A stretch of DNA of 64,000 bases from an uncultured Acidimicrobiales bacterium (GTDB taxonomy: Bacteria > Actinomycetota > Acidimicrobiia > Acidimicrobiales > SHLQ01), in the NCBI GenBank assembly GCA_964517125.1, contig CAZFBD010000006.1, forward strand, positions 27,429-91,428, read 5' to 3'. The notes below the pieces were generated by a model. The model saw nothing but the letters and a program-made list of their open reading frames with translations, was not told the origin of the DNA and ran no database searches. Position 1 is the stretch's first letter. The number at the start of each line of letters is the position of its first letter. The translations under genes and the position numbers were made by a program. This document shows positions 10,092 to 32,277 of this stretch, one piece after another.

Positions 10092-10163
10092 GCACCTATG
10101 GCGAAGTGGAAACGCTGGGGCCTGCAAAGCCTCGATGCGAAGGTTCGATTCCTTCTAGGTGCT
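10092..10163 (+). tRNA. tRNA-Cys: tRNA-Cys (anticodon GCA)
   Basis: Hand-folded cloverleaf. Acceptor GCACCTA/TAGGTGC (7 bp). D arm GCG/CGC with an A.A mismatch and a GG in the loop. Anticodon stem GGGGC/GCCTC, loop CTGCAAA. 5-nt variable loop. T arm GAAGG-TTCGATT-CCTTC. Discriminator T (U73), the known CysRS identity base. No encoded CCA. Confidence 0.9.
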
Positions 10164-10410
10164 CTGGAAAGGTTTGGAGATGAGATTCTTAATAGCTTGG
10201 AGCTACTACCGGGAGCAGATGAAGGACTACCCGAATACGCCGAAGGCGCAAGCCCGTCTCTGGGCATGGCGTCGAGCGGGCTTGTAGGGGCGAAGCTAGA
10301 GTAGGTACCGACTAGCGGCCCGAGTCTCCCCCCCCAATCCTTCGATCGAGGAGATACAAGAACCCATGAGCCTGGCGAAACCTCCATTCAGATGAGGCGG
10401 CAAGAAGAAG

Positions 10411-17019: not shown

Positions 17020-17728
17020 TGCAATCCAATTCTGCTAGTTGGGTTAGATGGTCGAGGTCGGAACGTCTCATCACGGCGAGCTTTACGTCGGACCCTTCTC
17101 CTTCGCCCCAAGATAGAGCGAGAGCGGCCGGGCCTCCCGAGCGGTCGGCTCGGGTCGAGACTTCGGCGAACTTGGCTTGAACCTTCTCGCCGCTCCACCA
17201 CTTACGGATTACGGATAAGTCGTCGCTCATAACCGAGTACGAGGCGACCTTCCCCGGCGAGTCCTCTTTGGCGTGGTTAATCATCACGATCAGATCGTCG
17301 ATCGGCACGAGAGCGATTACGTCGTCTCGCCAGACCCGAGGAGTTGCCCCTAGTACCGAAGGAAGATCGGCGAGCGGAGCCCACTTCGAAGGTACGCGAA
17401 TGTAGTCGAATTGCTCGGTCTCTTCGAAGTACATCCGGCAAGTCCGAAGCTCTACGGTTACGTCGGCTCCTCCGCCTCTCGCTCCGGAGAGGGCGACCCT
17501 TCGACCCTTGATCGACTTGGCGAAGCGAAGCTCTCGGCGGTTGGCTCGACCCTTGATCGAAGATCCCCTGCAAGCTCGACATTTGTTCTTGTCGCAATTG
17601 CGGGTATGGACCTTCCCGTCCTTCCACTTCTTCGGCTTGCCTCCCTTCATCCGAGGGAGCCCTTTCCTTCCGCAGCCACAGCCACAAGTGACGTGTTCCT
17701 TCGGCGGTTTGAGTAGTTCTCCAGCCAT
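17009..17728 (-). CDS. zinc-ribbon protein, function unknown
   Basis: Track ORF 17009..17812 trimmed to ATG 17728 (GGAAGGA ribosome site, 2 nt after the upstream stop). N-terminal CGCGCG...NCDKNKCRAC cluster. A PD-(D/E)xK-like nuclease core was considered but its lysine is not evident. Confidence 0.55.
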   Translation of the reverse strand: MAGELLKPPKEHVTCGCGCGRKGLPRMKGGKPKKWKDGKVHTRNCDKNKCRACRGSSIKGRANRRELRFAKSIKGRRVALSGARGGGADVTVELRTCRMYFEETEQFDYIRVPSKWAPLADLPSVLGATPRVWRDDVIALVPIDDLIVMINHAKEDSPGKVASYSVMSDDLSVIRKWWSGEKVQAKFAEVSTRADRSGGPAALALSWGEGEGSDVKLAVMRRSDLDHLTQLAELDCIES

Positions 17729-17730
17729 AG

Positions 17731-18030
17731 CTAAATCCTTCCGGGATTGAATTGTGCGACGGTCTTCCAAGCGTCTTCGGGCGGCATGACTTCGTTCCCC
17801 CACTGAATGCAAAGCGTCTTAGCTTCGAGTTCAGGAATCCAATACGGCGCTCGGGAGTGGGGCTCTACGAGCGGGAACTTTGGGCTCTCTCGAAAGGCGA
17901 CTTGGGAGAGGTACGTCTCGCTGCACCAACGCCTCCAGGTCTCGTCCGGTATCACGGCTCCGTTTGCTCGCAGATGCTTGAGTAGTTGAGCGGCCTTGAT
18001 AGCGACTATTCGTTGAGTCATCGGGGCCAC
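17731..18030 (-). CDS. hypothetical protein
   Basis: Track ORF, with GTG 18030 or ATG 18021 as start. First gene of the minus-strand block. Confidence 0.55.
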   Translation of the reverse strand: MAPMTQRIVAIKAAQLLKHLRANGAVIPDETWRRWCSETYLSQVAFRESPKFPLVEPHSRAPYWIPELEAKTLCIQWGNEVMPPEDAWKTVAQFNPGRI

Positions 18031-18124
18031 CTTACTACATAACCCCTGAAACCCCCACCCTATACAGATCGTCCGGAGCCGCTGATAACATCGAAGTCCT
18101 TCCCTTAGCTAGAAAGGTCCTACA

Positions 18125-18814
18125 TTGAGTGGTTGGGCGAATAGGATCGTCGGCTTTGAGCCGGAGGTAAAACCGTCGGAGTTGATCCCTCATCCGAGGA
18201 ACCCAAGACTCCACGGCGATAACCAGCGGGCGGCGATGGGCGAGACGCTGGCTTCGATCGGCTGGACTACGCCGGTAATCGCCAACCAGAAGACCAACCG
18301 GATAATCGACGGCCACATGCGAGTCGAAGAGGCCGCAGCAAACGGCGAGACCGTTCCGGTTATGTGGGTCCATCTGAATACCGAGGAAGAAGAGCACGCA
18401 GCCCTTGCGACCCTCGATCCGTTAGCGCTCATGGCTACCTTCGACGATCAGATCTTGACCGATCTAGTCGAGATAACTGACTCGGTGCCGAGCGGAGTTA
18501 GCGACCTCCTGGCCCAGATAGCGAACTACGATCCTGTCGAAGAACTCGAAGAGATAGCCGGGAGGGTTCCCGCTCCGGTCGCCGACCTGCCGATGCCGGA
18601 GGTCGACCTAACGTCGAGAGGCTCAGAGATCTCGGTCCCGAATCCGGCCGAACGGCGCGACGCCTGGGCTGAGGCCGGAGTGCGTTCGATTATCCTCCCC
18701 TTCGACGCCGATACCTACAAGCTAGTGGTCGAGTCCTTCGCCGAAGCTCGGGAGCGCTTGGGCGTCGACTCCAATGCCGAAGTGGTAGTGAGTCTTCTCG
18801 GCGTGGAGCAATGA
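18125..18814 (+). CDS. ParB-like N-terminal (ParB/Srx) domain protein
   Basis: Track ORF, TTG start with GAAAGG upstream. Motifs IPHPRNPRLH and IIDGHMRVEEAAANGETVPV. Confidence 0.7.
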   Translation: MSGWANRIVGFEPEVKPSELIPHPRNPRLHGDNQRAAMGETLASIGWTTPVIANQKTNRIIDGHMRVEEAAANGETVPVMWVHLNTEEEEHAALATLDPLALMATFDDQILTDLVEITDSVPSGVSDLLAQIANYDPVEELEEIAGRVPAPVADLPMPEVDLTSRGSEISVPNPAERRDAWAEAGVRSIILPFDADTYKLVVESFAEARERLGVDSNAEVVVSLLGVEQ

Positions 18815-19641
18815 AAGAGATCGAGGTCTCTCGATCCGACTTCAAGCCGGTACGAGGGGAAGCCGAATACGCGGAACCTCCAGGTAAAGACTCCGTCGTC
18901 TTGACGGATCATCTCGGCATCGACGCCGAGACGGGCTGTCCGGTGATAGCTCATTCGACGGTTGACTTCGGCGAGATCGGCGAAGCTCTCTTCGAGTGGG
19001 CTCCGCATATGCCTTGGAAGGGCGAGGGCTCCTCCAAGAACGAAGTCCGACTCTCCGGTATCAATAACGCTCACGTCATCTTCGGCTATGCGGCCCCGGT
19101 CCCTATGCGTCGGCGATGGGCGGCTTCCTCTACGGCTTTCAACCGGGAGTATCCGAAGGCGGCTTACGCCTTGGAAGTCCTCGCCGCCCAGTGCTCTGAT
19201 TGGTTCGAGGCCAACCTTCCCGAAGCGTATGAGAATCACCTACAAGCTATCGACGGTCTTCACGACGGTTGGAAGCTAGCCGGGCGAGCGCCTTGGACTT
19301 CCGGGATCATCAACAAGTCGGCAGCCCTCCGCTACCACCGGGACTCCGGGAACTCCGTAGGATCCTGGTCCGCGATGATCGTTATGAGGAAGGGCGTCGG
19401 CGGCGGGCTCCTCCACGTAAGAGACCTTGACGTCTACCTAGCGTGCGACCACATGAGCCTTTCGATCTTCGACGGACAGGCCCTAACCCACGGCGTTACT
19501 CCGCTGGTCCATAGCGAGGACCCCGAAGAGATTCGGATATCGATCGTCTTCTACACCAAGACCGGAATCGTTAGGGCCGAAGCTCCGGGAGACGAGATAA
19601 TTCGCGGGCAGATCCGAGCATCGAGGGGCATCGAAGAATGA
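18811..19641 (+). CDS. 2OG-Fe(II) dioxygenase, TET/JBP-like
   Basis: ATGA overlap. Motifs YHRDSGN (HxD), LTHGVTPL (second His) and RISIVFY (RxS 2OG arginine), in the order and spacing of double-stranded beta-helix dioxygenases. The wording resembles TET catalytic cores as I recall them. Confidence 0.7.
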   Translation: MKEIEVSRSDFKPVRGEAEYAEPPGKDSVVLTDHLGIDAETGCPVIAHSTVDFGEIGEALFEWAPHMPWKGEGSSKNEVRLSGINNAHVIFGYAAPVPMRRRWAASSTAFNREYPKAAYALEVLAAQCSDWFEANLPEAYENHLQAIDGLHDGWKLAGRAPWTSGIINKSAALRYHRDSGNSVGSWSAMIVMRKGVGGGLLHVRDLDVYLACDHMSLSIFDGQALTHGVTPLVHSEDPEEIRISIVFYTKTGIVRAEAPGDEIIRGQIRASRGIEE

Positions 19642-20558
19642 CGATCCTTGAGGAAGCGGGAGCGCTCGGAGAAGACTTCGTCGCCTTCGGAACCGTTCAC
19701 CGAGAGACGAGAGACATCGATCCGATCTACCCGGTGATGCGACATCTCTTCGTCTTCGCTCCTCACCTCTTCCCTACCGAGCGCTCAAGGGTCGAGTTCA
19801 CCTTCGCTTACGTGACTTGGTACAACCTCCCGACGGCCCTCTCGCTTTGGGTCCAAGGGTTCCGCTTCTCCGACACAAAGATCGGCGAGGTCGACTACTG
19901 GCCGACCGGCGTAGAGCGTCGAGGCCATCGCAACCCGGCCGCCACAAACGCTCACATCGACTCGCTCCGTAGTCTCGATGACGCCTTCTCCAACGGCCTT
20001 CTAGGTTGGCTCTCTTCGGGCCAGCAAGAGGACCCCTTCGAGGAGTGGAGGCGACTGCAAGAGGTCTTGGTCGAGCCGTGGGGCAACGGTCGATGGGCCG
20101 CTTTCAAGACGGGCGAGGTCTTGATCGAGGCGAACAACTGGAAAGCGGAGCCGACCGACGCGGGGCATAAGAACTCAACCGGCCCTCGAAGAGGTCTGGC
20201 CGACCTCGCTCCGCAAACCGTCGGCTACTCGATAGCGGAACTAGACCTAATCACCGAAGAGCTTCGCCTCGATATGGAGGAGCAAACCGGTGAGCGCTGG
20301 AGGGTCGCCGAGATCGAGACGGTCCTATGCGACTTCCATTCGATGAGGAAGGGCGGCTACTACGTCGGTCACGACATCGACTTACTCCTCGCTCAACTAG
20401 GCGGCGAGAGGGTCGATCAGGTAGCTCGGAATCTCATCCTCAACGCTCGGTCGCATTGCTTCCCGAGTTGGCTTCTCGGCGAGATGCAAGGTTGGGATGG
20501 GGTTCGGCGAGATCTCAAGAAGCTCTATCGAGACGACGGAGGTATCGGCTGGTGGTAG
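19638..20558 (+). CDS. hypothetical protein, possibly aGPT-Pplase-like DNA base-modification transferase
   Basis: ATGA overlap. Motifs WGNGRWAAFKTGE and ETVLCDFHSMRKGGYYVGHD. The family assignment rests on context and weak recollection only. Confidence 0.6.
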   Translation: MTILEEAGALGEDFVAFGTVHRETRDIDPIYPVMRHLFVFAPHLFPTERSRVEFTFAYVTWYNLPTALSLWVQGFRFSDTKIGEVDYWPTGVERRGHRNPAATNAHIDSLRSLDDAFSNGLLGWLSSGQQEDPFEEWRRLQEVLVEPWGNGRWAAFKTGEVLIEANNWKAEPTDAGHKNSTGPRRGLADLAPQTVGYSIAELDLITEELRLDMEEQTGERWRVAEIETVLCDFHSMRKGGYYVGHDIDLLLAQLGGERVDQVARNLILNARSHCFPSWLLGEMQGWDGVRRDLKKLYRDDGGIGWW

Positions 20559-21424
20559 TAGTCGAAGGAATGGGCTGGCTCGGCGTTGTCGCCGGGCGGA
20601 TACTCGACGAGCTGGGCGTCGACTGGTGTTGGTATGACACCGACTCGCCGGTCCAATCCTGGAGAGCGTCGACCGGGATCGTCTATCCCGGAGGCGATGA
20701 GATGGACCGTTCTAACTACGATCGGTGGATCGCCGAACTCGCCGAAGGGCGATGGATCGACGATGCGGTAGAGCCGGTCGAGTTCTGGTTTGCTCACCTC
20801 AACCCTCCACACGGCGGCAAGTACTCCCTCTCGGCTGACCTTGGGTCTATCCGGCGCGGATCCCTCCCGGCCGTGATGGTCAACGTTCCGGAGGTCGTCG
20901 CTCGGCACCGAGAGCTATGGGCTGATCGTCGAGTAGAACCGAGGCAGCCCGACGTAATCGCCCACGGCTTCCGAGGGCGGATCGTTAGATGGGTCTGGGG
21001 CTACTCGGTAAAGGTTCGGCTTGAGTTCTCCGATGAGCTTCGTAACGCTTCGGAGTCCGGAAGGCTTTCTCTCTACGGCCGAGACGGTCGTTTCAAGATC
21101 GTCTATGCCCACCTAGGAGCCGGTAGCGATTACTGGCGAGTCGGCTCGTCTTTGATAAGTCAGAAGGTCCCGAAGGAGCTAGACGCCGGGAAGCACTTCG
21201 ATTCTTGCCGAGCATCCTTCGAGAAACTCTTCGGAGATCACGCTCAAATTGTCGAGCAGCTTGAAGAGCCGGTTCACGGCTGGAGGCCGAAGCGTTCCGA
21301 CGAAGACGACGACCGCTGTATCGTCGATCCAACCGGCGTTATCCACTTCCCTTCGGTCGCCTACTCCGGCGTTCGCTGGACGCCTTCGATCGCCGATTCG
21401 TTCCGAGAGGTAATACCGAGATGA
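20552..21424 (+). CDS. FAD-dependent oxidoreductase (DAO/glycine-oxidase-like)
   Basis: Track ORF 20327..21424 trimmed to GTG 20552 (GGAGG 9 nt upstream, 7-nt overlap with upstream gene). N-terminus VVVEGMGWLGVVAGRILDELGVDWCWYD is a Rossmann GxGxxG..D fold. C-terminal motif is HGWRPKRSDED..P.G. Confidence 0.6.
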   Translation: MVVVEGMGWLGVVAGRILDELGVDWCWYDTDSPVQSWRASTGIVYPGGDEMDRSNYDRWIAELAEGRWIDDAVEPVEFWFAHLNPPHGGKYSLSADLGSIRRGSLPAVMVNVPEVVARHRELWADRRVEPRQPDVIAHGFRGRIVRWVWGYSVKVRLEFSDELRNASESGRLSLYGRDGRFKIVYAHLGAGSDYWRVGSSLISQKVPKELDAGKHFDSCRASFEKLFGDHAQIVEQLEEPVHGWRPKRSDEDDDRCIVDPTGVIHFPSVAYSGVRWTPSIADSFREVIPR

Positions 21425-21936
21425 TCTTCGTCCACCTAATGGGAGTCCCTGGAGCCGGGAAGTCGACGGCCGTCCGCAAAGCTCTAGCCAATACCGAGCG
21501 GATCGAGCTAGACGTAGGCGCTCCCTTCGCCGTAGAGACCTTCGCTTACGAGGGCAAGACCATCGCCCATCTAGGTTCAACCGAGGGCGAGTATCCGGGA
21601 ACCGACCGACTCTCGATGGCGGTCTCACCTCAAGTCGTAGCGTGGCTCGCCGGAGGTCCGCCCGTTGACGTAGTCCTCTCCGAGGGGGACCGGTTGACGT
21701 CGAGGAAGTTCTTCGACCAAGCCGACAAGATCGGCGTCGAGCTTCGAGTAGTACTCCTCGCCGTCTCCGAAGAGGTCGCCCAACAGCGCCGAGATAAGCG
21801 AGGCTCGAACCAGAGCGCGACTTGGCTCAAGGGTCGGACGTCTAAAGTAGGCAACCTCGCCGATCGAGTAACGAGAAGGATTGGCACCCTAGAGCGAGCG
21901 GACAAGGTTCTACTAGAGGAGCTAAGCCGTGAGTGA
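21421..21936 (+). CDS. P-loop kinase-like protein
   Basis: ATGA overlap. Walker A HLMGVPGAGKST within a 171-aa kinase-sized protein. Confidence 0.65.
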   Translation: MIFVHLMGVPGAGKSTAVRKALANTERIELDVGAPFAVETFAYEGKTIAHLGSTEGEYPGTDRLSMAVSPQVVAWLAGGPPVDVVLSEGDRLTSRKFFDQADKIGVELRVVLLAVSEEVAQQRRDKRGSNQSATWLKGRTSKVGNLADRVTRRIGTLERADKVLLEELSRE

Positions 21937-22312
21937 ACAACTCATCCGAGTTTGGCTCGCCGGGGCCGAAGCCGCCGATGCGGCCGAAGTCCTAGGCGTT
22001 GACATCGAAGAATACGACCGGGCCGTTAGTAGCTTCCTGGCCAACGAGAGCGAGACCACTTCGGGGGACCGAGTCGGCCTGCAGCTCGCCGAGATCACCG
22101 CTTCGCGCCAAGCTCTTCGCCGTCTAATCTCTTCGCCGTCCACGGCTCCGGCCGACGTCGTGAGAGCCGTGCTCGCCCTCTTCCGGGCTCACGACCAAGA
22201 GGCGAAGGTAATCGGCTCGCTCCACCACGACCCTCAAGCCCGAGTCGCCAAAGACTCCGTAGCCTCGCGCCCCTTCGGCTCGATCCTGGCGACGATTGGC
22301 TCGGACATCTAG
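21929..22312 (+). CDS. putative terminase small subunit (HTH protein)
   Basis: Track ORF, GTG start overlapping the upstream end. N-terminal HTH-like AADAAEVLGVDIEEYDRAV. Lies immediately upstream of terL. Confidence 0.45.
   Translation: MSEQLIRVWLAGAEAADAAEVLGVDIEEYDRAVSSFLANESETTSGDRVGLQLAEITASRQALRRLISSPSTAPADVVRAVLALFRAHDQEAKVIGSLHHDPQARVAKDSVASRPFGSILATIGSDI
22286..22298 (+). promoter_or_regulatory. CTGGCGAC(C)GATTG motif, copy 1 of 3 (upstream of terL)
   Basis: CTGGCGACGATTG 16 nt before ATG 22315. Related copies precede the portal gene and gene 55422. Confidence 0.3.
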
Positions 22313-22314
22313 CC

Positions 22315-23856
22315 ATGTCCGGCGCTCCGGATACCCGACCTCCCGAGCTACTAGAAGGACTACCGGTACCCGACGAGACCTCGGTCGAAGCCGTCAGCAC
22401 TGAAGGACTATCCCCTAGGGAGCACGAGCTAGCCGTACGGATCAACGCTCTTGAGGAATACTCCGACGTCGAGAAGTGGGTTCTATTCCGACTCGCCAAG
22501 TGGCGACATATCGACGCTCGACCCGAGCAACTTATGCCGGTCGACGCTCAATACTTCTTCGCTGTGGGAGGTCGCGGGTCCGGCAAGACGAGAGCCGGAT
22601 CCCAAACCCTCTTCGAATGGGCATGGGAGTTGCCCGGTACCCGCTGGGCTTGCGTCGGACCGACCAGGCTCGCCGTTCGAAATCTAATGTTCCTCGGTCC
22701 GTCGGGTCTTCGAAACGTCATCCCGGATCAAGCTCTCGAAACGGGCGACTGGGACGGCTCCTTCAATGAGACTCGCCTAGAGCTTCGCCTAGCGAACGGC
22801 TCGGTCATTACCGGCTACTCCTCCGAGCGTCCCGGTCGAATCCGAGGCGACAACCTTTCGGGATTCTGGGGAGACGAGCCAGCCGAGTGGAAGGACTCAA
22901 GCCAACTCCCGCTCGAACTCAACACGACGTTCTCAAACCTTATGCTCGCCGTCCGGGAGAATACCGAAGGCGGTACGCGAGGGATCATCACCGGGACTCC
23001 TACGCCCTGCCCGCTTCTCGCCGGTAACGCCCAACACGAGATCCCCGGCCTCCTCACGGGGATGCAAGAACCTCCAATGACGGTCGTCCGCATGTCGACT
23101 CGGGACAATCTAGAGAATCTCGACGCGAGCTTTACCCGGCTCATCATGTCGCTCGAAGGAACTCGCCTTGGTCGCCAAGAGATCGATGCCGAACTTCTTA
23201 CCGATATCGAAGGAGCGGCTTGGAAGAACCATTGGATAGTCGTCGACGACACGGGCCTAACGCTCCAATTCGACCGCATGGTAATCGCCGTCGACCCTTC
23301 TGGTAGCGACGGCCAAGGCGACGGAGACGAAGTAGGCATCGTCGTTTGTGGGCTTTCTGACGGCCAGTACTGGGTACTCGAAGACCTCTCGGGAGGATGG
23401 GGGCCAGGCGAGTGGAGCGAATTGGTATGGGACGCTTACAAGCGATGGGAGCCGCAGTCCTACCGGGCTCCGCATATCAAGGTCGAAGGCAACTACGGGA
23501 AAGAGCTAGCGGCTCAACCTCTCCGGGTAAGCCAAGACCGAGTTCCCGGAATCGACATCGACATCAAGCCGGTACGCGGGTCGAAGTATCAACGGGCGAA
23601 AGCAACCGCCCAGATCTACGAGCCGACGTTGCAGAAGGCCACAGGCGTACGAGTCCGTCACGCCGGGCGCTTCCACCTCCTGACTAGCGAGATGACTACC
23701 TTCTTGCCCGAGAGCGGTTGGTCGCCGAACCGAATGGACGCTCTTACGCTCGGGATGAATTGGCTCGCCGAATTCGACGAACTACCTCAAGTAGCCGGGA
23801 GCCACGGGACCACCCTCGGCACGCTCCTCGGTCGTCACTCAGGCGGGTATCGCTAG
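22315..23856 (+). CDS. terL: terminase large subunit
   Basis: 513-aa track ORF. Walker A GGRGSGKTR, Walker B-like FWGDEPAEW, and nuclease-domain acidic motifs (VIAVDPSGSD). Confidence 0.85.
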   Translation: MSGAPDTRPPELLEGLPVPDETSVEAVSTEGLSPREHELAVRINALEEYSDVEKWVLFRLAKWRHIDARPEQLMPVDAQYFFAVGGRGSGKTRAGSQTLFEWAWELPGTRWACVGPTRLAVRNLMFLGPSGLRNVIPDQALETGDWDGSFNETRLELRLANGSVITGYSSERPGRIRGDNLSGFWGDEPAEWKDSSQLPLELNTTFSNLMLAVRENTEGGTRGIITGTPTPCPLLAGNAQHEIPGLLTGMQEPPMTVVRMSTRDNLENLDASFTRLIMSLEGTRLGRQEIDAELLTDIEGAAWKNHWIVVDDTGLTLQFDRMVIAVDPSGSDGQGDGDEVGIVVCGLSDGQYWVLEDLSGGWGPGEWSELVWDAYKRWEPQSYRAPHIKVEGNYGKELAAQPLRVSQDRVPGIDIDIKPVRGSKYQRAKATAQIYEPTLQKATGVRVRHAGRFHLLTSEMTTFLPESGWSPNRMDALTLGMNWLAEFDELPQVAGSHGTTLGTLLGRHSGGYR

Positions 23857-24095
23857 CCGACCGTTACGCCAAGGTCCTTGGCCAAAGCGGCAAGGAGGGC
23901 GTATGCGTCGGCCTCTGGGATCTCAATAGCGGTAGCCTGTTGCCCGTCTCCGCCGATCTCGACCGTCACCCGACCCTTGTAGCCGTAGTCCTCGGTATTA
24001 CCTTCGGCCTGAACCGTTATCTCTAGGTAGGAGAATTCGCCGGTCTTCTGGCCGCCTGGGGTTTCTTCGGTCTGGTTGTACTCGTAGGTGCTCAT
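23853..24095 (-). CDS. hypothetical acidic protein, leaderless
   Basis: Track ORF. ATG 6 nt after the -10 of a minus-strand promoter. Its stop overlaps the terL stop within the GCTAGC palindrome. Confidence 0.6.
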   Translation of the reverse strand: MSTYEYNQTEETPGGQKTGEFSYLEITVQAEGNTEDYGYKGRVTVEIGGDGQQATAIEIPEADAYALLAALAKDLGVTVG

Positions 24096-24101
24096 GGGGC
24101 A

Positions 24102-24135
24102 ACCATAATCCGCCTTCGGTATTAAAGCAACCCCT
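24102..24135 (-). promoter_or_regulatory. conserved-type promoter (minus strand)
   Basis: Reverse complement reads cAGGGG-TTGCTT-17 nt-TATGGT-6 nt-ATG 24095. Confidence 0.6.
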
Positions 24136-24137
24136 GA

Positions 24138-24473
24138 TTACTTATTTAGTCCGGAGAGCAGGAGGGTCACGATCTTCTTTACGTCGGCATCTTCGTAGAT
24201 GAGGAACATCGCCCCTTCGGGTCCGTGTTGCCCGTCGAGTCCCGGATCGAGGTTCACCGGGTAAGAGGCTCCGGTCTCCGCCATCTCCTGAAACCGCTCG
24301 ATCATTTGGGCGGTACTATCCGCCTCAACTTCGTTGAAGACCTTCGTATCGAAGTCGGTCCCGGCCGTCATGCCTTTGACTCGCAACGGGCCGACGTTCC
24401 AAAGCCCGAGGATCTCGGCGAAGACGGTTCCTTTCTCAAGCTCCAGGAATTCAGGACGGCGGCATATTCTCAT
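24138..24473 (-). CDS. hypothetical protein
   Basis: Track ORF. TATGAT lies 6 nt upstream of the ATG on the minus strand, suggesting a leaderless start. Confidence 0.6.
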   Translation of the reverse strand: MRICRRPEFLELEKGTVFAEILGLWNVGPLRVKGMTAGTDFDTKVFNEVEADSTAQMIERFQEMAETGASYPVNLDPGLDGQHGPEGAMFLIYEDADVKKIVTLLLSGLNK

Positions 24474-24508
24474 GGCTCGATCATAGCCCTAGATACGTAA
24501 AGGCTAGG

Positions 24509-24796
24509 ATGGTCCTTATGGATCACGAGCTACCGCCCGGCCACGTCTACCGATACTCCGCTTCGCCCGAGATCGACTTGGAAGGCCGACCTACCGGTTA
24601 CGTGGCATGGGTTAAGAGGCCCGAGCGGATAGGCACTTGGAAGCACCGCGCTCTGGCTCTAGAGAAAGCTCGGGAGAAAGCGAAGCTAAGAGGCGAGATC
24701 TACGCTCCGATAAAGCTCCGCTCCTCTTACGTCCGTCAGGACATGAGTCCGCATAAAGTGAGTTCATGGCAAGACCTTCCGGCTCAAGCCGGGTAA
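24509..24796 (+). CDS. hypothetical protein
   Basis: Track ORF. An alternative start at ATG 24518 lies 7 nt after a TAGGAT -10-like hexamer. Confidence 0.55.
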   Translation: MVLMDHELPPGHVYRYSASPEIDLEGRPTGYVAWVKRPERIGTWKHRALALEKAREKAKLRGEIYAPIKLRSSYVRQDMSPHKVSSWQDLPAQAG

Positions 24797-24972
24797 CTCC
24801 GAAGAAGAATACGGGCGCTAGACCGTCGGGCTCGGTAGCCCTCCCTGGCTCCACCAAGAATGTTCGGTGGTGCGAGGGCCATAAAGCCTTCCACCCGGTC
24901 AACCCGAAGCCGAAGTCAAAGCGTAAGCCGGTCGTCCTCCAGTCCAAGCCGGAACCGGACGAGCCGTCCTAA
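24766..24972 (+). CDS. hypothetical basic protein
   Basis: Track ORF with high GC3. Overlaps the upstream gene by 31 nt. Contains RWCEGHKAFH. Confidence 0.4.
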   Translation: MARPSGSSRVTPKKNTGARPSGSVALPGSTKNVRWCEGHKAFHPVNPKPKSKRKPVVLQSKPEPDEPS

Positions 24973-25078
24973 CGTTCCGATGACGACCGAGTCAAGACGG
25001 TAGCCTGAATCTCCAAAGCGGAACTACTCTTCCTTACGGGCTAGCGGCCATTCGACCCTTCGTAGTAGAGGTTCTGTA

Positions 25079-25285
25079 ATGTGGTTGCTCGTCGCCGGAA
25101 GCGGGCTCGTACTCGGGATAGCTATCGGCCTAGCTACAACTGGAGTTGGGTTCCTGATGTCCCGTAACGACTTCGAGCCGGGTATCGGCCATCCTGGGAT
25201 GGAGTGTCGAGAAGCTCGCGTCAAGATCGAGCGGCTCCAACAGCAGATCCTCGCTATGAAGGAACAATCCGAAGTAGTGGAGTAG
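25079..25285 (+). CDS. small membrane protein (paralogue A)
   Basis: Track ORF. One TM segment (LLVAGSGLVLGIAIGLATTGVGFLM), then GHPGMECREARVKIERL. Confidence 0.6.
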   Translation: MWLLVAGSGLVLGIAIGLATTGVGFLMSRNDFEPGIGHPGMECREARVKIERLQQQILAMKEQSEVVE

Positions 25286-25290
25286 AGGTC

Positions 25291-25521
25291 ATGCTTTATG
25301 TAGGGATGTCGACGATGTTCGCTCTCTTCGTCCTACTGGGCTTCCCGGTAGGAGTCGGAATCGGCTGGACGATACGAAGGGTCCGGGTCCAACGATCCGA
25401 CCACCCCGGCTACTCGTGCGTCGAGGCCGTCGAGATTATCGAGGGCCTAACCCTCGATCGGAATCCGGTCCCGGTTGAACATCGAGACCTAGCTTGGACG
25501 CACCGAGTAGCTCTCGGTTAG
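25291..25521 (+). CDS. small membrane protein (paralogue B)
   Basis: Track ORF 25204..25521 trimmed to ATG 25291. One TM segment (MFALFVLLGFPVGVGIGWTI), then DHPGYSCVEAVEIIEGL. Same architecture as 25079..25285. Confidence 0.55.
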   Translation: MLYVGMSTMFALFVLLGFPVGVGIGWTIRRVRVQRSDHPGYSCVEAVEIIEGLTLDRNPVPVEHRDLAWTHRVALG

Positions 25522-26089
25522 AAATTTCTTTGAAGTATTTATCCCACTAGCCAAGAGGTCTGAGGGCGCTAGGGGATCGGAGGGAAGCGAGAGGGGACTA
25601 GCTTTCTCGCGCCCGTCGAGGCATAGTTGTCGACCAACGCTCCGCGACAACCGAGAGATCCCCTACCGTACGGGATCGGCCAGAACGGAATAACTGGCTC
25701 AACAAACCCCCTGCCGACACAAGTGGGAACTAAGCGGCCACCGAGTGAGTGAGCAAGTAAAGAGGGCAGAGGCCCTTGGACACTCCGACGATCGAGACCG
25801 GGTAACCTGCGGCCGTCGGCGATCGGTTCTTCGGAACCCATCGGGAGCGAGTGAGTCACACTTACGCCCTTCGATTTGAGGGGAGAGGTTGAATGGTCCT
25901 CTCCCTTGGCTGCGAAGGATTCGTAAGGTTCACAGAACGGATCGGTTCACCTCAGCGTTGCCCCTTGATTAGCGAAAGCGACGAGCGACGGGTAATACCG
26001 AAGGTCTAGCGTTCCAAGGTCTAGGTTTGTTCTACTGCAAGAGCACACCTAGCCCTGACGCTCTGCTCAGGGCTCTGGGTAATCCCTGA

Positions 26090-26182
26090 CGGTCGGCGTC
26101 TTCTAAGAGGGTGGGGCCGCCCCAGCGGCCTCAAGCGTCAGCTGATGGATGAAATCCATCCCCTCTTAGAAGACGCCGACCG
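26090..26182. repeat. 22-bp perfect inverted repeat enclosing two sub-hairpins
   Basis: CGGTCGGCGTCTTCTAAGAGGG (26090-26111) and CCCTCTTAGAAGACGCCGACCG (26161-26182). The 49-nt loop contains TGGGGC-CG-CCCCA and GATGGAT-GAA-ATCCATC. Confidence 0.85.
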
Positions 26183-26263
26183 ACGATGAATTGGGCATGA
26201 GTCTAATACCCGCTGTCAAGAGGGGAGGATAGGGAGAGTATAGACCAGCCCTAGGGTTAAATC

Positions 26264-26318
26264 AATAGGGGATATAAGTAATTACTAGTTGACTCATAGG
26301 GTAAAGACGGACTAAAGT
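26264..26318 (+). promoter_or_regulatory. promoter with split upstream element
   Basis: aATAGGGGatataaGTAATTACtag-TTGACT(26289-26294)-18 nt-TAAAGT. Leader of about 30 nt, then GAAGGG and ATG 26355. Confidence 0.5.
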
Positions 26319-26354
26319 ACTAGGTAAGAAGCAGTCATCGAGAAGGGTATTCAG

Positions 26355-26636
26355 ATGGAACCAGGCGACGAGATTGAAGAAGAGTTCGAAGTAATTGGGG
26401 CTCTGGAACTCGACGAAGTAACGGCGAGGGACCTCCGAAGGACTTTGAACTCGCTCCGGGTTCACGCCCTTGTGATAGCGGTTGCTTTCCTCGCCTACGT
26501 CTTCTCCCTCCGGGCTAACTTCTACCCGATCACCGTGGTAGCCGTCTTCGTTCTGGTCTTCGCCGTCCCCGGCTTCGTCGGCACCGTCCGGGCTTGGTAT
26601 CAAATCCAATCCTTCCGGAACTTCTGGCAGCTATGA
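26355..26636 (+). CDS. small membrane protein
   Basis: Track ORF. Two hydrophobic segments. Confidence 0.6.
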   Translation: MEPGDEIEEEFEVIGALELDEVTARDLRRTLNSLRVHALVIAVAFLAYVFSLRANFYPITVVAVFVLVFAVPGFVGTVRAWYQIQSFRNFWQL

Positions 26637-26896
26637 CCTCCGCGACTAAGGCGAAGAAGAAAGCCGAAGCTTGGTCTTGGAAGTTCCTGCTCCTTCCGTT
26701 TGGAGTTGGCTTCGCCGTCCCGATGATCTTGGTCGGGATCTTCTCCGAGATCGGCGGCCGGACCGTTACCGTTTCGACTTACACCGGCCTGACAACGCTC
26801 GCCCTGTTCCACGCCTTCAACCTCTACGTCCTGACTACGGTCAAGATCCCGAAGCGCTGGGAACGGATTAAGAATTGGAAGAAGTACGTCAAGTGA
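26633..26896 (+). CDS. small membrane protein
   Basis: Track ORF 26594..26896 trimmed to ATG 26633 (ATGA overlap). Two hydrophobic segments. Confidence 0.6.
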   Translation: MTSATKAKKKAEAWSWKFLLLPFGVGFAVPMILVGIFSEIGGRTVTVSTYTGLTTLALFHAFNLYVLTTVKIPKRWERIKNWKKYVK

Positions 26897-27159
26897 GCCA
26901 GACCAAAGAAGAAGAACTCATCTCCGATTGCCGCAAGGTTGAAGCGGGGATCTTGATCCTCACCTTCGTAGCGGCCTCAGTCGCAACCATGACTGGCGTA
27001 GCTTTCGATTGGGTCGAGCATCCAATCCTCGCTCTCCTAGCGCTCCTACTCGTCTCCGGGATTTGGTCGCTTCTCGTCTCGATGGCGGCAAGCTTCCCCG
27101 ATCGAGTTCGAGCCCGAGCTATTGCCGAGCTTCTTATCGATCCGGAGGTAGGACCGTGA
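26893..27159 (+). CDS. small membrane protein
   Basis: Track ORF 26875..27159 trimmed to GTG 26893 (GTGA overlap). Two hydrophobic segments. Confidence 0.55.
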   Translation: MSQTKEEELISDCRKVEAGILILTFVAASVATMTGVAFDWVEHPILALLALLLVSGIWSLLVSMAASFPDRVRARAIAELLIDPEVGP

Positions 27160-27398
27160 ATCTCCTAACGTGGATCTCGATCGTCTTCCTCGCCTCCGCG
27201 GTGCTTCTCGTGCTCTTGACTTCGGCCTACCGGATAGCGGTAAAGCAATGGGCCATCGTTGATGAACTCGGTCCCTTCGACCCGAGAGGCCAAGGACCTC
27301 GACCCGAATCCGACGGCTGGATAACCAACGCCGAAGCGGCCGGGGACGTCGATCACGAGCCGATCGGCTTCGCCGATATCGAGCCCTTCAAGAGCTAA
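27156..27398 (+). CDS. small membrane protein
   Basis: Track ORF 27009..27398 trimmed to GTG 27156 (GTGA overlap). N-terminal TM LLTWISIVFLASAVLLVLL. Confidence 0.55.
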   Translation: MNLLTWISIVFLASAVLLVLLTSAYRIAVKQWAIVDELGPFDPRGQGPRPESDGWITNAEAAGDVDHEPIGFADIEPFKS

Positions 27399-27402
27399 GC
27401 CG

Positions 27403-27960
27403 ATGACGTCTTTGCTTCTCCTGATTCGTCGCCTCTTCGTAGGCTTCGAAGTCGACTCAGTACTAACCGTCGAGCGCCAGACCTACGGCGTCGACGCGAT
27501 TTACTCCGACGGCGAGCGAGTCCACGTCGTCCCCCTATGCGCAGCCTCTTTCGAAACGGCTCACCCGGTTGACGTACGAAGGGCGAGAGGTCTAGAGAAT
27601 TGCGAGCATTGTCTCCCGGATCCTCCCGGCTTGCTGACCTTCGATAAGGAAGGGATCTCCCGAGCGGAGATGGTGAACCGAACGACCGAGTTCTACCGAG
27701 CCCGAGCTATCCGGGTCGAGCAAGAGAGGATGGTCCGAGAGCGGATCGTCGCACCAAACCTCGATCCCGGCCTCATCGCCCGGATCCGTCAGGCGGAGGC
27801 AACCCTAAACGAACTCCCGCTCGACCTTCGAGGGCTCACCGATCAACAAGCCCAAGCCCAAGCTCATCGACTAGAGACCGAGGTAGCGAAGATGCTGCGA
27901 GCGGCCGAAGAGGAGTGGGACCGAGAACTACGAGACGGACCCCGAAAGGACCACCGATGA
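27403..27960 (+). CDS. hypothetical protein
   Basis: Track ORF. C-terminal half looks helical / coiled-coil. Confidence 0.55.
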   Translation: MTSLLLLIRRLFVGFEVDSVLTVERQTYGVDAIYSDGERVHVVPLCAASFETAHPVDVRRARGLENCEHCLPDPPGLLTFDKEGISRAEMVNRTTEFYRARAIRVEQERMVRERIVAPNLDPGLIARIRQAEATLNELPLDLRGLTDQQAQAQAHRLETEVAKMLRAAEEEWDRELRDGPRKDHR

Positions 27961-28769
27961 TTCAAGAAACGGAACTAAGCGAAGGCGAGCAGATCGTCAC
28001 GCAAATCAAACCGCACTGGTACTTCTTCGCTAGCCGGATCCTTCTCTACATAGTCGGGATGATCCTCATGGTTGGAGCCCTCCTACTCCCCGGCAACGTC
28101 GGCGGCTGGATTGCTCTCGCTATCGCCCTATGGCTCGTAGTAACGATCGGCTGGCGAGCCCTCGAATGGCACGCGACGACCTTCGTAATCACGACCGACC
28201 GAATCATGTCTCGCTCCGGCGTACTCACTAGAACCGGAATCGAGATCGCTCTTGAGTCGATCGTCAACGTCCGATTCTCCCAGTCGATAACCGAACGGCT
28301 CGTAGGAGCCGGAGACATCTCGGTCGAGTCGGCCAACGATTCGGGCTCGACCAAGTTCGACGACATCAAGAACCCGAAGCACATTCAAGCCCTTATCCAC
28401 CGGACCAAAGAGCAGAACGTCGAGACGAAACGAGACTTCGCCTCCCTCGACGCGACGAAGGTCCAGGTCCCCGGCGACATCGCAATCGGCGCTCCTCTCC
28501 CGAAGAGTTCCTCGCCGAAAGTCAAAGGCGCTCCTCCCGTCCCTACCGAGGACTGGCGAGCGAAGGTACCGGTTCCGAGGGTCGTCTCTAAAGACGAGGA
28601 TCCGACCGACGAGGTAGAGATCCCGATCGAGACGATGCGACCAGCTACGAAACCTCGATCCCTTTCGGAGAAGATTCGAGAGATCGCCGCCCTTCGGGAT
28701 GAGGGAGTAATCAACCAACAAGACTTCGAACGGATGAGCCGAGAGCTGATCCAGAATGACGGGAGCTGA
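27957..28769 (+). CDS. membrane-flanked bacterial PH (bPH_2/YdbT-like) domain protein with C-terminal SHOCT-like motif
   Basis: Track ORF 27915..28769 trimmed to ATG 27957 (ATGA overlap). Two TM segments followed by FVITTDRIMSRSGVLTR..., with C-terminal IAALRDEGVINQQDFERMSRELI. Confidence 0.6.
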   Translation: MIQETELSEGEQIVTQIKPHWYFFASRILLYIVGMILMVGALLLPGNVGGWIALAIALWLVVTIGWRALEWHATTFVITTDRIMSRSGVLTRTGIEIALESIVNVRFSQSITERLVGAGDISVESANDSGSTKFDDIKNPKHIQALIHRTKEQNVETKRDFASLDATKVQVPGDIAIGAPLPKSSSPKVKGAPPVPTEDWRAKVPVPRVVSKDEDPTDEVEIPIETMRPATKPRSLSEKIREIAALRDEGVINQQDFERMSRELIQNDGS

Positions 28770-28773
28770 AACT

Positions 28774-29280
28774 ATGGAGACCTGGAATCTAGAGCTAACA
28801 ACCTTCGGCGGCATCTGCGTCGGAGCCAAGCACTTCTACGGAGTGCTCTATCCGGCGACCGGAGAACCGATCCGATTGGAGTACAGGCCCGACGCCGAGC
28901 AATCGGCGCTGCTCTCCGAAGCGGAGTGGGAGCATCCCGTAGGTATGGAGACCGAGCGCTTCTTTACCTCCGAAGACGTTCTCCGGAAAGGGATCGAGGT
29001 CTTCCAAGAGAAGGCGAGAGGTCCCCAGCTTCTCCTACTCGGTCAACACGCATCACGCTCGACGAAGGTCGTCATCTCTTCAATCGAGATCGATCCGGCT
29101 CGCGTCGCCACGCTCAACGAGATCCACGCCCGGCGATGCTCCGAGCAAACCCAAGCGAACCTTCACCAAAGCTTCGCTTCGGCCGAAGAACTTCACCGGG
29201 CCTTTGCTCCGGTCGAGGCTCTCAACGACGCCTTTGCCGAACTGGCTATGGCTGCGGTTAACGGTCGAGCGCATTGCTGA
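28774..29280 (+). CDS. hypothetical protein
   Basis: Track ORF 28756..29280. ATG 28774 is preferred because GGGAG lies 8 nt upstream. Confidence 0.55.
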   Translation: METWNLELTTFGGICVGAKHFYGVLYPATGEPIRLEYRPDAEQSALLSEAEWEHPVGMETERFFTSEDVLRKGIEVFQEKARGPQLLLLGQHASRSTKVVISSIEIDPARVATLNEIHARRCSEQTQANLHQSFASAEELHRAFAPVEALNDAFAELAMAAVNGRAHC

Positions 29281-29424
29281 CGATTGACCTCCGAGTCCTT
29301 TGTAGTTGTTGGGCTTGCGGAGCCGACCACTGGCCGAGCGCCGCTAGTTGGGTAATTCGAGTCGGGCTTCGAGCGCCGATAGTCGTAGCCTCGATATGCC
29401 CGGCGTGCTCGGAGGACAGCGGCC

Positions 29425-29745
29425 TTGACGAGAAGTGGTAGATCGTTGCTAGACGTACTAGAAGAGATCGAAGACGAAGCGGTTGGAGGCAACCTCCTGG
29501 TAGGCGGCTTCCTTTCGTCCCCCGAGCTTCGAGCTTCGGTAGCCCTCGCCGTAGAAGCCGAGCGCCGACTCTTCGAGAACGAGGCTATGTACGGTTCGGC
29601 CTACGGTCCCTATCTCCACGATTCGGCCTACGCTGAGATGTCATGGCCGACCCTTGTATCTATTGCCAGGCAAACGTTGAGGAACGAGAGCCGGACCACG
29701 CGAGCGATTGCCCGTTTGAAACTAACGTTTGGCCGAACTCGATAA
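29425..29745 (+). CDS. doubtful ORF (5' two thirds look protein-like)
   Basis: Track ORF, TTG start. Its last 100 nt overlap the better-looking ORF 29643..29855 in another frame and translate as R/T-rich sequence. Confidence 0.3.
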   Translation: MTRSGRSLLDVLEEIEDEAVGGNLLVGGFLSSPELRASVALAVEAERRLFENEAMYGSAYGPYLHDSAYAEMSWPTLVSIARQTLRNESRTTRAIARLKLTFGRTR

Positions 29746-29855
29746 ACGAACCGATCGTTTGCTACGACTGCAAGACCGATATCGGCGATACCTATTCGGT
29801 CGATTCGAACTTCATCAAATGCCACGACTGCGCCGGAGTCCCGGCCCCTACCTAG
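29643..29855 (+). CDS. Cys-rich zinc-ribbon protein
   Basis: Track ORF. Cysteine pairs CIYC...C, CYDC and CHDC. Confidence 0.55.
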   Translation: MADPCIYCQANVEEREPDHASDCPFETNVWPNSINEPIVCYDCKTDIGDTYSVDSNFIKCHDCAGVPAPT

Positions 29856-29864
29856 GAATTTCTA

Positions 29865-29901
29865 ATTAGGGGTTGACTTAAGATCCGGGAGGGATCAAGA
29901 T
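29865..29901 (+). promoter_or_regulatory. conserved extended promoter
   Basis: attAGGGG-TTGACT(29873-29878)-17 nt-CAAGAT-6 nt-ATG 29908. Confidence 0.65.
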
Positions 29902-29907
29902 ACTCCT

Positions 29908-30339
29908 ATGAATCTCATCGAATCAGTCAACAGCGCAATCGCTAACGGCCTCCCAGTAACCGTGACCCGCTCACTGGACGAAGGACGTTGGAGCTACTGG
30001 CTCCACGTAGACGCCATCTACTTGACAGACCTTCCCGAATTCGTCGGGATTGCCTTCGTCGAGCAGATGGAGCGGACCAGCCCGAACGCTTGGGTGGCGA
30101 GCAAGCAACTAATCCTCAACCCACAAGCCCGAGTTCTCTATGCTCAGCGGCTCGGCTATCTGGTCCGCATGGACTACGTTTGCTGCGGCTGGGAAATCCA
30201 GATCGGCGAAGCACCCAGCTTCGAGGTCAGCGACCTTACCGCCGAAGACCTCCTTGAGACTTGCATAGTCGAAGAAGTTGGCGGCCCCGATTCGACCGAA
30301 GTCCTTCTCACCGAAGATCGAGAAAGCGAGTTTTGCTAG
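29908..30339 (+). CDS. hypothetical protein, leaderless
   Basis: Track ORF. ATG 6 nt after the -10. Confidence 0.65.
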   Translation: MNLIESVNSAIANGLPVTVTRSLDEGRWSYWLHVDAIYLTDLPEFVGIAFVEQMERTSPNAWVASKQLILNPQARVLYAQRLGYLVRMDYVCCGWEIQIGEAPSFEVSDLTAEDLLETCIVEEVGGPDSTEVLLTEDRESEFC

Positions 30340-30360
30340 GAGTCTCCTAGCTACAAGATC

Positions 30361-30402
30361 GGAGGCCGGTCCGCTTTATCGCCCACCGCTGGACCGGCCT
30401 CC
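30361..30402 (+). terminator. hairpin terminator (12-bp perfect stem)
   Basis: GGAGGCCGGTCC ... GGACCGGCCTCC, 22 nt after the stop at 30339. Confidence 0.55.
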
Positions 30403-30431
30403 TCTCCCGCAACCAACGAAAGGATTCAGCC

Positions 30432-31079
30432 ATGAGCACGCTGACCAGAGTAAGCCAACTAGCGAAGCAGTCGAGGAAGTTTGGTTGGGACGTAACGGTC
30501 CGAGCCAACATCGCACCGGCCGAAGACGAAAGGGATTGGGACGGCGAGCCGTTCACCATCGAGAAGATCGAAGAACTCTTCGGCGAAGGTAGGAGCTGGT
30601 TTATCCGCTTCTCGCATCCCCTCTCCAGGCTCCCCCAAGAGCAGACCCGAGCAATCCGTAACGTCGAAGGCAAGCCCGTCGAAATCGACGGCGTCCCGTT
30701 TCTTCGATGGGGCGACCGGGAGCAACACGGCGACGCCCTGAGGAACTACCGAGATTTCGATATTGCCTACCGAGACGTTTCTATCGTTCACGTAACCGGC
30801 GAAGGAAACCTCAACGGCAAGTCGACCAAGGGTTCATACCGGACGGAGGTCTCCCTTAAGGAGATCGAGCGCCACCTTGACCGGAAGGTAGTTACCTCTC
30901 TCGCCGCCATCCCGGCGCTTCGAGAGTTTGAAAGTTCGTGCTCCCAGTTCGAAGCGTCGAGCGGCCGGGTTGGTCGCGCCGAAGAAGAGCTAGCTCAGAT
31001 CCGAGCAGAGCACGCCCAGAACATCAACCGAGTAAGCCGAGCCGCTATGGCTCTCAAGAAAGCGGAGGCACCCAAGTGA
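30432..31079 (+). CDS. hypothetical protein
   Basis: Track ORF. AAAGGA ribosome site. Confidence 0.6.
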   Translation: MSTLTRVSQLAKQSRKFGWDVTVRANIAPAEDERDWDGEPFTIEKIEELFGEGRSWFIRFSHPLSRLPQEQTRAIRNVEGKPVEIDGVPFLRWGDREQHGDALRNYRDFDIAYRDVSIVHVTGEGNLNGKSTKGSYRTEVSLKEIERHLDRKVVTSLAAIPALREFESSCSQFEASSGRVGRAEEELAQIRAEHAQNINRVSRAAMALKKAEAPK

Positions 31080-31873: not shown

Positions 31874-31901
31874 GACGGAGGAGTAAGAAGGTTCTAAGTC
31901 G

Positions 31902-31936
31902 CTCCCGGCCGGGTATCCAATCCGTCCGGCCGGGAG
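31902..31936 (+). terminator. hairpin terminator (11-bp GC-rich stem)
   Basis: CTCCCGGCCGG-13 nt-CCGGCCGGGAG, 29 nt after the stop at 31873. Confidence 0.55.
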
Positions 31937-32068
31937 AGTGGTAGCCGCTAGGTGTGCGTCCTTCGTAAGGGGATGACACCGGGTAGGGCTAGCTCTTTGC
32001 TCAGGGGCTAGACCGGAGTTCGATTCTCCAAGTGGCACTAATCGATAGCTAAGGAAGGAGGAAGGTCA

Positions 32069-32251: not shown

Positions 32252-32277
32252 CAACCCACCGAAAGGAATACGCACCT

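Follow-up and report, generated by a model that had tools for sequence, protein, structure and literature searches.

In a 64-kb stretch of DNA from an uncultured Acidimicrobiales bacterium assembly (64,000 nucleotides of contig CAZFBD010000006.1; this whole stretch is called the window hereafter), we observed a cassette of five genes at 18125-21936 that leads into the terminase genes. We consider, with a probability of about 0.9, that this cassette is a TET-primed thymidine hypermodification operon. That its specific product is 5-aminomethyl-deoxyuridine (5-aminomethyl-dU) we put at slightly better than even odds. The operon belongs to an uncultured, probably actinobacterial, phage. The five genes are the following (sizes in amino acids, aa).

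18125-18814, plus strand: gene 1, ParB-like protein, 229 aa
18811-19641, plus strand: gene 2, TET/JBP dioxygenase, 276 aa
19638-20558, plus strand: gene 3, amino acid:DNA transferase (AADT), 306 aa
20552-21424, plus strand: gene 4, protein predicted to have the D-amino-acid oxidase (DAO) fold, 290 aa
21421-21936, plus strand: gene 5, P-loop kinase, 171 aa

We infer all the enzymatic steps of the proposed pathway from homology, synteny and gene fusions. In the first step, the dioxygenase, together with the ParB-like protein encoded upstream of it, would convert thymine in double-stranded DNA to 5-hydroxymethyl-deoxyuridine (5-hmdU), replacing the route through a deoxyuridine monophosphate (dUMP) hydroxymethylase; ParB-assisted oxidation of thymine has been demonstrated with other enzymes of the ParB-associated clade (PMC13229309). 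The P-loop kinase would then phosphorylate the hydroxymethyl group to give 5-phosphomethyl-dU, a reaction on 5-hmdU in DNA that has been shown for PaMx11 gp49, M6 gp54 and others (PMC8989533). In the third step, Cys231 of the AADT would attack C6, the phosphate would leave, and glycine, as the most likely amino acid, would join the exocyclic methylene to form Nα-glycinyl-thymidine (Nα-GlyT). This mechanism of cysteine attack, phosphate expulsion and glycine addition is taken from the published work on AADTs (PMC8989533, PMC11472151). Finally, the DAO-fold protein would oxidise the glycyl amine in a flavin-dependent manner, and hydrolysis would then yield 5-aminomethyl-dU and glyoxylate. In Pseudomonas phage PaMx11, gp46-gp49 comprise the glycine:DNA transferase PUGT, the flavin-dependent Nα-GlyT oxidase NGTO, an acetyltransferase and a 5-hmdU DNA kinase, and they give rise to 5-NmdU (5-aminomethyl-dU) and 5-AcNmdU (its acetylated form) (PMC8989533, PMC11472151). 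The original prediction for this DNA had proposed TET-supplied 5-hmU, followed by kinase, transferase and flavin-dependent trimming towards 5-aminomethyl-dU, and this turned out to be the best-supported reading.

The gene 2 product matched Pfam Tet_JBP (PF12851; E = 4.1e-10, 39.6 bits against a cut-off of 34.9), and its family profile matched human TET2 and Naegleria Tet in the PDB. The motifs YHRDSGN, LTHGVTPL and RISIVFY are present in its translation. The iron triad (H176-x-D178 and H227) and the 2-oxoglutarate-binding R242 are invariant in six homologues. With a family match above the cut-off and invariant catalytic residues, the TET/JBP assignment made earlier was upheld. We predict that gene 2 encodes a 2-oxoglutarate/Fe(II)-dependent 5-methylpyrimidine dioxygenase, and more specifically a thymine dioxygenase that makes 5-hmdU in DNA.

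Membership of Tet_JBP by itself does not separate 5-methylcytosine (5mC) from thymine as the substrate, and when purified, phage T-dioxygenases carried out iterative oxidation of 5mC as well (PMC13229309). The enzyme might accordingly act on 5mC, like the members of phage TET clades A and B, in which case cytosine would be the base that the cassette hypermodifies; we find this very unlikely. Pfam searches of the 87 other open reading frames (ORFs) in the window with 70 aa or more detected no C5-methyltransferase, thymidylate-synthase-like enzyme or acetyltransferase. The 5mC reading was rejected since no C5-methyltransferase was found in the window. Moreover, the neighbouring AADT and P-loop kinase are 5-hmdU machinery, and the ParB-associated clade C1 is a clade of T-dioxygenases (PMC13229309). 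The window carries features of this ParB-dependent subclass, with an adjacent ParB-like gene, kinase and AADT neighbours, and no C5-methyltransferase found nearby. For the thymidine operon that we prefer, the result that neither a C5-methyltransferase nor a thymidylate-synthase-like gene was found in the window fits a T-based, wholly post-replicative route, and because no acetyltransferase was found, the free amine is the likely end product.

Gene 3 matched Pfam ADDT (PF18724; E = 1.1e-11, 45.4 bits, cut-off 26.2), the same family that is matched by PaMx11 gp46. ADDT, or AADT, denotes the amino acid:DNA transferases that were formerly called clade 2 of aGPT-Pplase. Its motifs WGNGRWAAFKTGE and ETVLCDFHSMRKGGYYVGHD are present in the translation; indeed, all the motifs quoted in the original prediction for the five genes were found in their translations. 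BLASTP aligned gene 3 with the crystallised PaMx11 gp46/PUGT at 24% identity over 282 residues (E = 4e-7). When the two proteins are aligned, the glycine contacts D24, W146 and K150 of PUGT correspond to D28, W153 and K157 of gene 3, and the DNA contacts E92, R94 and R97 to E93, R95 and R98. In gene 3, E227, T228 and C231 (ExxxC) take the places of the PUGT metal ligands and nucleophile, E243, T244 and C247. The roles of these PUGT residues are taken from its crystal structure (PMC11472151), and the catalytic cysteine and a nearby glutamate of AADTs are needed for activity (PMC8989533, PMC11472151). The aGPT-Pplase call, which had been thought the weakest of the five, has thus become well founded, with a Pfam match above the cut-off, a match to PUGT and conserved catalytic residues. 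By this homology, gene 3 would replace the phosphate group of 5-phosphomethyl-dU by an amino acid, for which glycine is the likeliest candidate; the conserved glycine-contacting residues are only suggestive of glycine as the nucleophile.

Gene 5 matched Pfam Ploopntkinase3 (PF18751; E = 1.5e-17), with further matches to AAA_33 and Zeta_toxin. Its Walker A motif reads GVPGAGKST, and the Walker A, GxD and EG motifs are common to PaMx11 gp49. We predict from these matches that gene 5 is a 5-hmdU DNA kinase that makes 5-phosphomethyl-dU. A wholly different view would be that the cassette consists of ordinary housekeeping genes (a ParB partition protein or nuclease, a 'queuine tRNA-ribosyltransferase', an 'adenylate kinase' and a 'small terminase') and that no base is modified. 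Such old names do stand on homologues in many GenBank/RefSeq phage records, as well as on PHROG 6059 and PHROG 800. We regard this view as most improbable, given that Pfam puts the proteins in Tet_JBP, ADDT and Ploopntkinase3, and that PaMx11 gp49, named 'terminase small subunit' in RefSeq, is a 5-hmdU DNA kinase by experiment (PMC8989533). The matches of gene 5 to (deoxy)nucleoside monophosphate kinases in NCBIfam were all far under the curated cut-offs. For this reason gene 5 does not fall among the ordinary kinases of that kind, and the earlier P-loop kinase call stood, now as a TET-linked Ploopntkinase3 member.

Gene 4 gave no match in Pfam, PHROG or NCBIfam, nor in phmmer or profile searches of the PDB. 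Structure prediction alone gave it an assignment. An AlphaFold2 model built from a 17-sequence alignment had a predicted local distance difference test (pLDDT) score of 88.8 and a predicted template modelling (pTM) score of 0.87. In a Foldseek search of the PDB, this model placed D-amino-acid oxidases at the top (E = 2e-12, template modelling (TM) score ∼0.67), followed by sarcosine, iminodiacetate and glycine oxidases, the range being E = 2e-12 to 1e-8 with TM scores of 0.6-0.7. Against the viral models of BFVD, it retrieved short phage FAD oxidoreductases, including Phelemich gp4. The N-terminus contains GMGWLG followed by D29. The FAD oxidoreductase call of the original prediction was therefore upheld at the level of the fold, with a Rossmann N-terminus and a DAO-like C-terminus in the AlphaFold2/Foldseek analyses, and found no support from sequence families.

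A word-indexed search of 5.8 billion proteins yielded 16 relatives of gene 4, and an exhaustive HMMER search of 1.84 billion representatives yielded 214. As 209 of these 214 had E-values below 1e-10, the edge of the family is sharp. In an alignment of 156 members, GxGxxG, D29, GWRP and G273-x-R-x-x-P were at least 91% conserved, and the individual positions G6, G8, G11 and D29 at least 92%. Going by its model, gene 4 is a GR2-type, DAO-fold, flavoprotein-like enzyme, and it represents a discrete family without a Pfam model.

Two relatives of gene 4 are fused to other enzymes. In the representative P0053 (L012:6001-7371), the gene-4 domain is joined to a GNAT acetyltransferase, and the order of genes at this locus is TET, ADDT, the gene-4/GNAT fusion and Ploopntkinase3, with a terminase further on. 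Another representative, P0129, is fused to a P-loop kinase through a long low-complexity linker. The P0053 fusion amounts to PaMx11 gp47 and gp48 in one polypeptide, which argues that the gene-4 domain yields an amine for acetylation. We predict that gene 4 is a functional analogue of PaMx11 gp47, the Nα-GlyT oxidase, and would likewise yield 5-aminomethyl-dU; this link is drawn from its position and size, the equivalence of the slots and the gene fusions. As no sequence homology between gene 4 and NGTO was detected beyond the Rossmann motif, we claim only a common fold class and pathway slot.

The family was confined to TET/AADT/kinase modules in every locus examined. It adjoined ADDT and Ploopntkinase3, with Tet_JBP nearby, in 6 of 6 metagenomic or genomic contexts and in 3 of 3 neighbourhoods examined in cultured phages.

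Gene 1 matched the ParB-like PHROG 620 (E = 8e-18) and PHROG 498 (E = 7e-21), in agreement with the earlier ParB-like call, and had no Pfam ParB_N match at E ≤ 1. It aligned weakly with Spo0J (E = 0.11), with GERRFRAA over GHMRVEEA, i.e. at the GxxR box. The motifs IPHPRNPRLH and IIDGHMRVEEA are both present in the translation. The protein begins with a ParB/Srx domain of nucleotide-binding type (with an NPR box and DGHMR as the GxxR box), which an acidic linker joins to what is probably a conserved C-terminal domain. The C-terminal block is common to the ParB-like gene 1 of phages CaiB, Tonitrus and Phelemich in the alignment. A size of 229 aa including the acidic linker leaves little room for a central helix-turn-helix. 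By analogy with the role described in PMC13229309, gene 1 is predicted to activate the dioxygenase encoded next to it. Gene 1 (DGHMR) and a ParB-like protein from Frankia (AGHGR) keep the GxxR arginine, and the versions from Gordonia, Rhodococcus and Mycobacterium phages have GNHTL instead. This difference may bear on whether such ParBs bind CTP.

We also looked at how the module recurs elsewhere. Homologues in the phage collection were found in 422 records for the kinase, 100 for the dioxygenase, 19 for the AADT and 8 for the gene-4 family, which indicates that reduced forms of the module are common and complete ones rarer. In the eight phage records, gene 4 lies near the left genome end. The order of the module genes is shuffled on metagenomic contigs. 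One copy of the module away from a terminase stands beside a Prim-Pol primase and another beside minus-strand genes. The linkage of the module with the terminase is thus frequent and not obligatory; for comparison, terminases occur in 19% of clade C1 neighbourhoods (O'Toole et al. 2026, PMC13229309). Since the Pfam matches lie above the curated cut-offs and the gene set recurs in unrelated phages and contigs, the cassette is more than a chance assembly.

Many records among those listed are misannotated, with the P-loop DNA kinase named 'terminase small subunit' or 'adenylate kinase' and the TET/JBP protein named 'queuine tRNA-ribosyltransferase' (L004, L006). In Frankia sp. AvcI1 (contig JALJSA010000021.1; L008:3224-8891), ParB-like, TET, ADDT, kinase and gene-4 genes lie directly downstream of PTPS (QueD), radical SAM (QueE) and GTP cyclohydrolase I genes. 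This neighbourhood places the pathways of 7-deazaguanine and thymine hypermodification side by side in one element.

Several observations weigh against the reading of the cassette as a thymidine hypermodification operon that ends in 5-aminomethyl-dU. The phage is known from metagenomes only. The contig measures at least 103 kb, of which the window covers 64 kb, so that a methyltransferase, hydroxymethylase or acetyltransferase could lie outside the window. Gene 5 had no match at E ≤ 1 to PF18748 (HMUDK_HMUD1), the family whose name refers to validated enzymes, to which PF18751 is a sister. The tail of gene 2 after RISIVFY is ∼27 aa long compared with ∼50-60 aa in its cultured-phage homologues, and an extended C-terminus has been described as typical of ParB-dependent dioxygenases (PMC13229309). 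In the clade of gene 3, the wedge segment of PUGT (F173/D175) is replaced by DAGHxxSTGPR, and the amino acid used by gene 3 is not readable from its sequence.

For gene 4, profiles built from 17 and from 156 sequences could be aligned with PaMx11 gp47, Kozie gp3 and Phelemich gp4 with any support solely at the Rossmann N-terminus; hhalign aligned just the first 30-34 residues with gp47. Gene 4 also lacks a match to Pfam DAO (PF01266), whereas gp47 matches this family at E = 2.6e-15, and the NGTO structures 8Z2O and 8Z79 were not among the 50 PDB matches listed for gene 4. On these grounds, the substrate of gene 4 could differ.

The pathway could run by the same route to the adduct and end elsewhere, through another nucleophile (another amino acid or a polyamine) or another redox step of gene 4, and the base might then be an undescribed one; we hold this to be possible and clearly the less probable outcome. 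The discreteness of the gene-4 family, with its 214 representative clusters and sharp E-value edge, would suit such an outcome, as would the lack of a link at the level of hidden Markov models (HMMs) to NGTO or Pfam DAO, the low identity of the AADT to PUGT with its different wedge segment, and the range of substrates known for AADTs (glycine, serine or putrescine; PMC8989533). On the other hand, gene 3 retains the Asp, Trp and Lys with which PUGT holds glycine, and the putrescine-using enzyme of ΦW-14 has a Tyr where PUGT and gene 3 have the Trp (PMC11472151). Whatever the Nα-linked amino acid, its oxidation by a DAO-fold amine oxidase would still end in 5-aminomethyl-dU, and the GNAT fusion of a gene-4 relative speaks for a product with a free amine, like that of PaMx11.

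A bolder proposal, which we consider doubtful, is that the gene-4 family stands for a flavoenzyme lineage of its own that entered thymidine hypermodification by an independent recruitment. The family could then differ from NGTO in chemistry or substrate and give rise to a thymine derivative undescribed so far, with the base perhaps installed during packaging and the ParB-like protein serving as a loader. The translational coupling of the module to the terminase genes is what suggests that a base might be installed as DNA is packaged.

The features that flank the cassette are the following (nt, nucleotides).

18031-18124, plus strand: intergenic region of 94 nt, probable promoter and ribosome-binding site of the operon
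21929-22312, plus strand: orphan ORF of 127 aa, small terminase by position only
22315-23856, plus strand: large terminase subunit TerL, 513 aa (Pfam Terminase_6N, E = 3.9e-10; PHROG 2, 38 and 979)

The ORF map and a base-by-base reading of the junctions confirmed the five ORFs and their chaining by start/stop overlaps, as had been described for this DNA before. ATGA overlaps occur at 18811, 19638 and 21421. The GTG start of gene 4 at 20552 overlaps the TAG of gene 3 (GTGGTAG), with GGAGG ∼10 nt upstream. Further on, GTG 21929 of the 127-aa ORF overlaps the TGA of gene 5, and the ATG of TerL at 22315 lies 2 nt past the stop of this ORF. The metagenome gene caller used shorter starts for the ParB-like gene (18236) and gene 4 (20570). 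The longer starts, 18125 and 20552, fit better because they keep the conserved N-terminal ParB box and Rossmann strand 1 of gene 4 in the alignments; the latter strand is present in all homologues aligned.

On the ORF map, the region 18031-18124 separates a divergent minus-strand gene (17731-18030) from the ParB-like gene, and AAAGG was read ∼8 nt before the TTG start at 18125. The promoter and terminator scan of 17500-24600 gave background level only, with no convincing sigma-70 match in 18031-18124. The 94-nt gap between the divergent gene and 18125 indicates that the operon probably begins there.

The claimed run of the cassette into a small terminase and terL held for its continuity and for TerL, which both Pfam and PHROG identified. 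The 127-aa ORF had no Pfam match, and its sole match among the 5.8 billion proteins was the cluster of its own gene (99% identical). Since it has no relatives beyond its own cluster, the 'small terminase' label is a matter of position. The translational coupling of the five genes to the terminase genes indicates that they are probably expressed late, with the packaging machinery, and from this operon structure we infer a coupling of modification to packaging. The likely benefit is protection of the phage DNA from host nucleases.

Elsewhere in the window, just seven Pfam families were recognised at E ≤ 1e-3 among the 87 ORFs outside the cassette, namely DUF4031, bPH_2, ChlI, RNase_T, Amidase_2, Rv2179c-like and SUR7. 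The family searches recognised no polymerase, portal or capsid families in the window ORFs. Downstream of TerL, ∼16 kb (23857-40126) consist mostly of small ORFs on both strands, without portal or capsid genes, and large plus-strand ORFs resume at 40127. This is an unusual layout, as the cultured relatives have a portal gene within ∼1-3 kb. A single tRNA-Cys (GCA) gene was found at 10092-10164, and 47214-48848 encodes a 544-aa protein with an FtsK/SpoIIIE-like match (PHROG 1358, E = 3e-18). Nucleotide similarity to known phages was essentially nil, with one 71-bp match to Microbacterium phages.

What is new here is that gene 4 is a discrete DAO-fold family without a Pfam model, comprising 214 representative clusters. 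The main value of the analysis is the correct annotation of homologues to which many of the listed phage records give a wrong name or just 'hypothetical protein'. Gene 4 can now be named, and its acetyltransferase and kinase fusions tie the family to the amine-forming step. The window adds a very divergent example of an all-post-replicative route to hypermodified thymine, its proteins being about 23-40% identical to the versions in cultured actinophages. Moreover, the compact five-gene operon is a convenient candidate for reconstitution in Escherichia coli and a possible enzymatic tool for marking thymine in DNA.

Finally, we compared the cassette with the known systems. It resembles PaMx11 in the order of AADT, flavoprotein and kinase and in the size of the flavoprotein (290 aa for gene 4, 286 aa for gp47), and gene 4 and gp47 would fall into the same fold class (GR2/DAO). 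The GNAT fusion of a gene-4 relative mirrors gp47 plus gp48, and the gene order at its locus (L012) matches gp46-gp49. In contrast to the window, PaMx11 makes 5-hmdU before replication, with a thymidylate-synthase-like gene nearby and without TET or ParB. It also possesses the acetyltransferase gp48, none being found in the window, and its cluster lies among replication genes rather than beside the terminase. The kinases of the two belong to different Pfam families.

Set beside the clade C1 T-dioxygenases by description (5mYOX176 with ParB176, PMC13229309), the window similarly has a ParB-like gene immediately upstream of Tet_JBP and a kinase and an AADT as neighbours. The clade C1 ParB also has the N-terminal domain of nucleotide-binding type seen in gene 1, and a conserved C-terminal domain to which the conserved C-terminal block of gene 1 may correspond (PMC13229309). 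The trypanosomatid JBP1/JBP2 system of base J is alike in that a TET/JBP enzyme hydroxylates thymine in DNA after replication and the product is then derivatised. The derivatisation differs: base J is 5-hmU glucosylated by a glucosyltransferase, whereas phosphorylation, amino-acid transfer and oxidative trimming are predicted for the window.

In cultured actinophages, the left end of the genome carries the module families immediately upstream of the terminase, much as the cassette lies upstream of the terminase in the window. The Mycobacterium phages Phelemich and Reprobate (gp1-gp5) have the gene order of the window. In the Gordonia Sourvirus phages (CaiB, LittleMunchkin and others), gp1-gp5 run ParB, TET, AADT, kinase and gene 4; the last two are swapped relative to the window, as they also are in Rhodococcus phage Tonitrus, which has the five-gene set. 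Microbacterium phage Kozie encodes TET, AADT, DAO and kinase proteins as gp1-gp4, with no ParB gene in the stretch examined. The gene-4 slot of Phelemich and Kozie holds a different short DAO-type protein, which in Kozie (gp3) is a Pfam DAO protein (E = 5e-20). The window differs from these cultured phages in that its cassette is preceded by 18 kb of sequence and its kinase and TerL genes are separated by an orphan ORF.

The protein families of the cassette were reportedly first described computationally by Iyer et al. in 2013. In the literature searched, we found no report of the final base of any TET-primed AADT cassette and no assignment for the fifth gene of the five-gene set. The novelty that the original prediction had attached to the combination did not survive, as the idea is in print: Lee et al. 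(2021) noted that some contigs without a dUMP hydroxymethylase encode Tet_JBP by the T-hypermodification genes, 'thereby producing the starting substrate' (PMC8989533). O'Toole et al. (2026) defined ParB-dependent T-dioxygenases and described them as 'consistently linked' with P-loop kinases and AADTs, and the step of ParB plus T-dioxygenase has been reconstituted (PMC13229309). A 2025 genome note lists the same five-gene set in Tonitrus, with the gene-4 homologue called 'hypothetical protein' (PMC11955845). Given these published proposals, the ParB/T-dioxygenase work and the Tonitrus set, the combination was already known, and the window provides a divergent new example of it.

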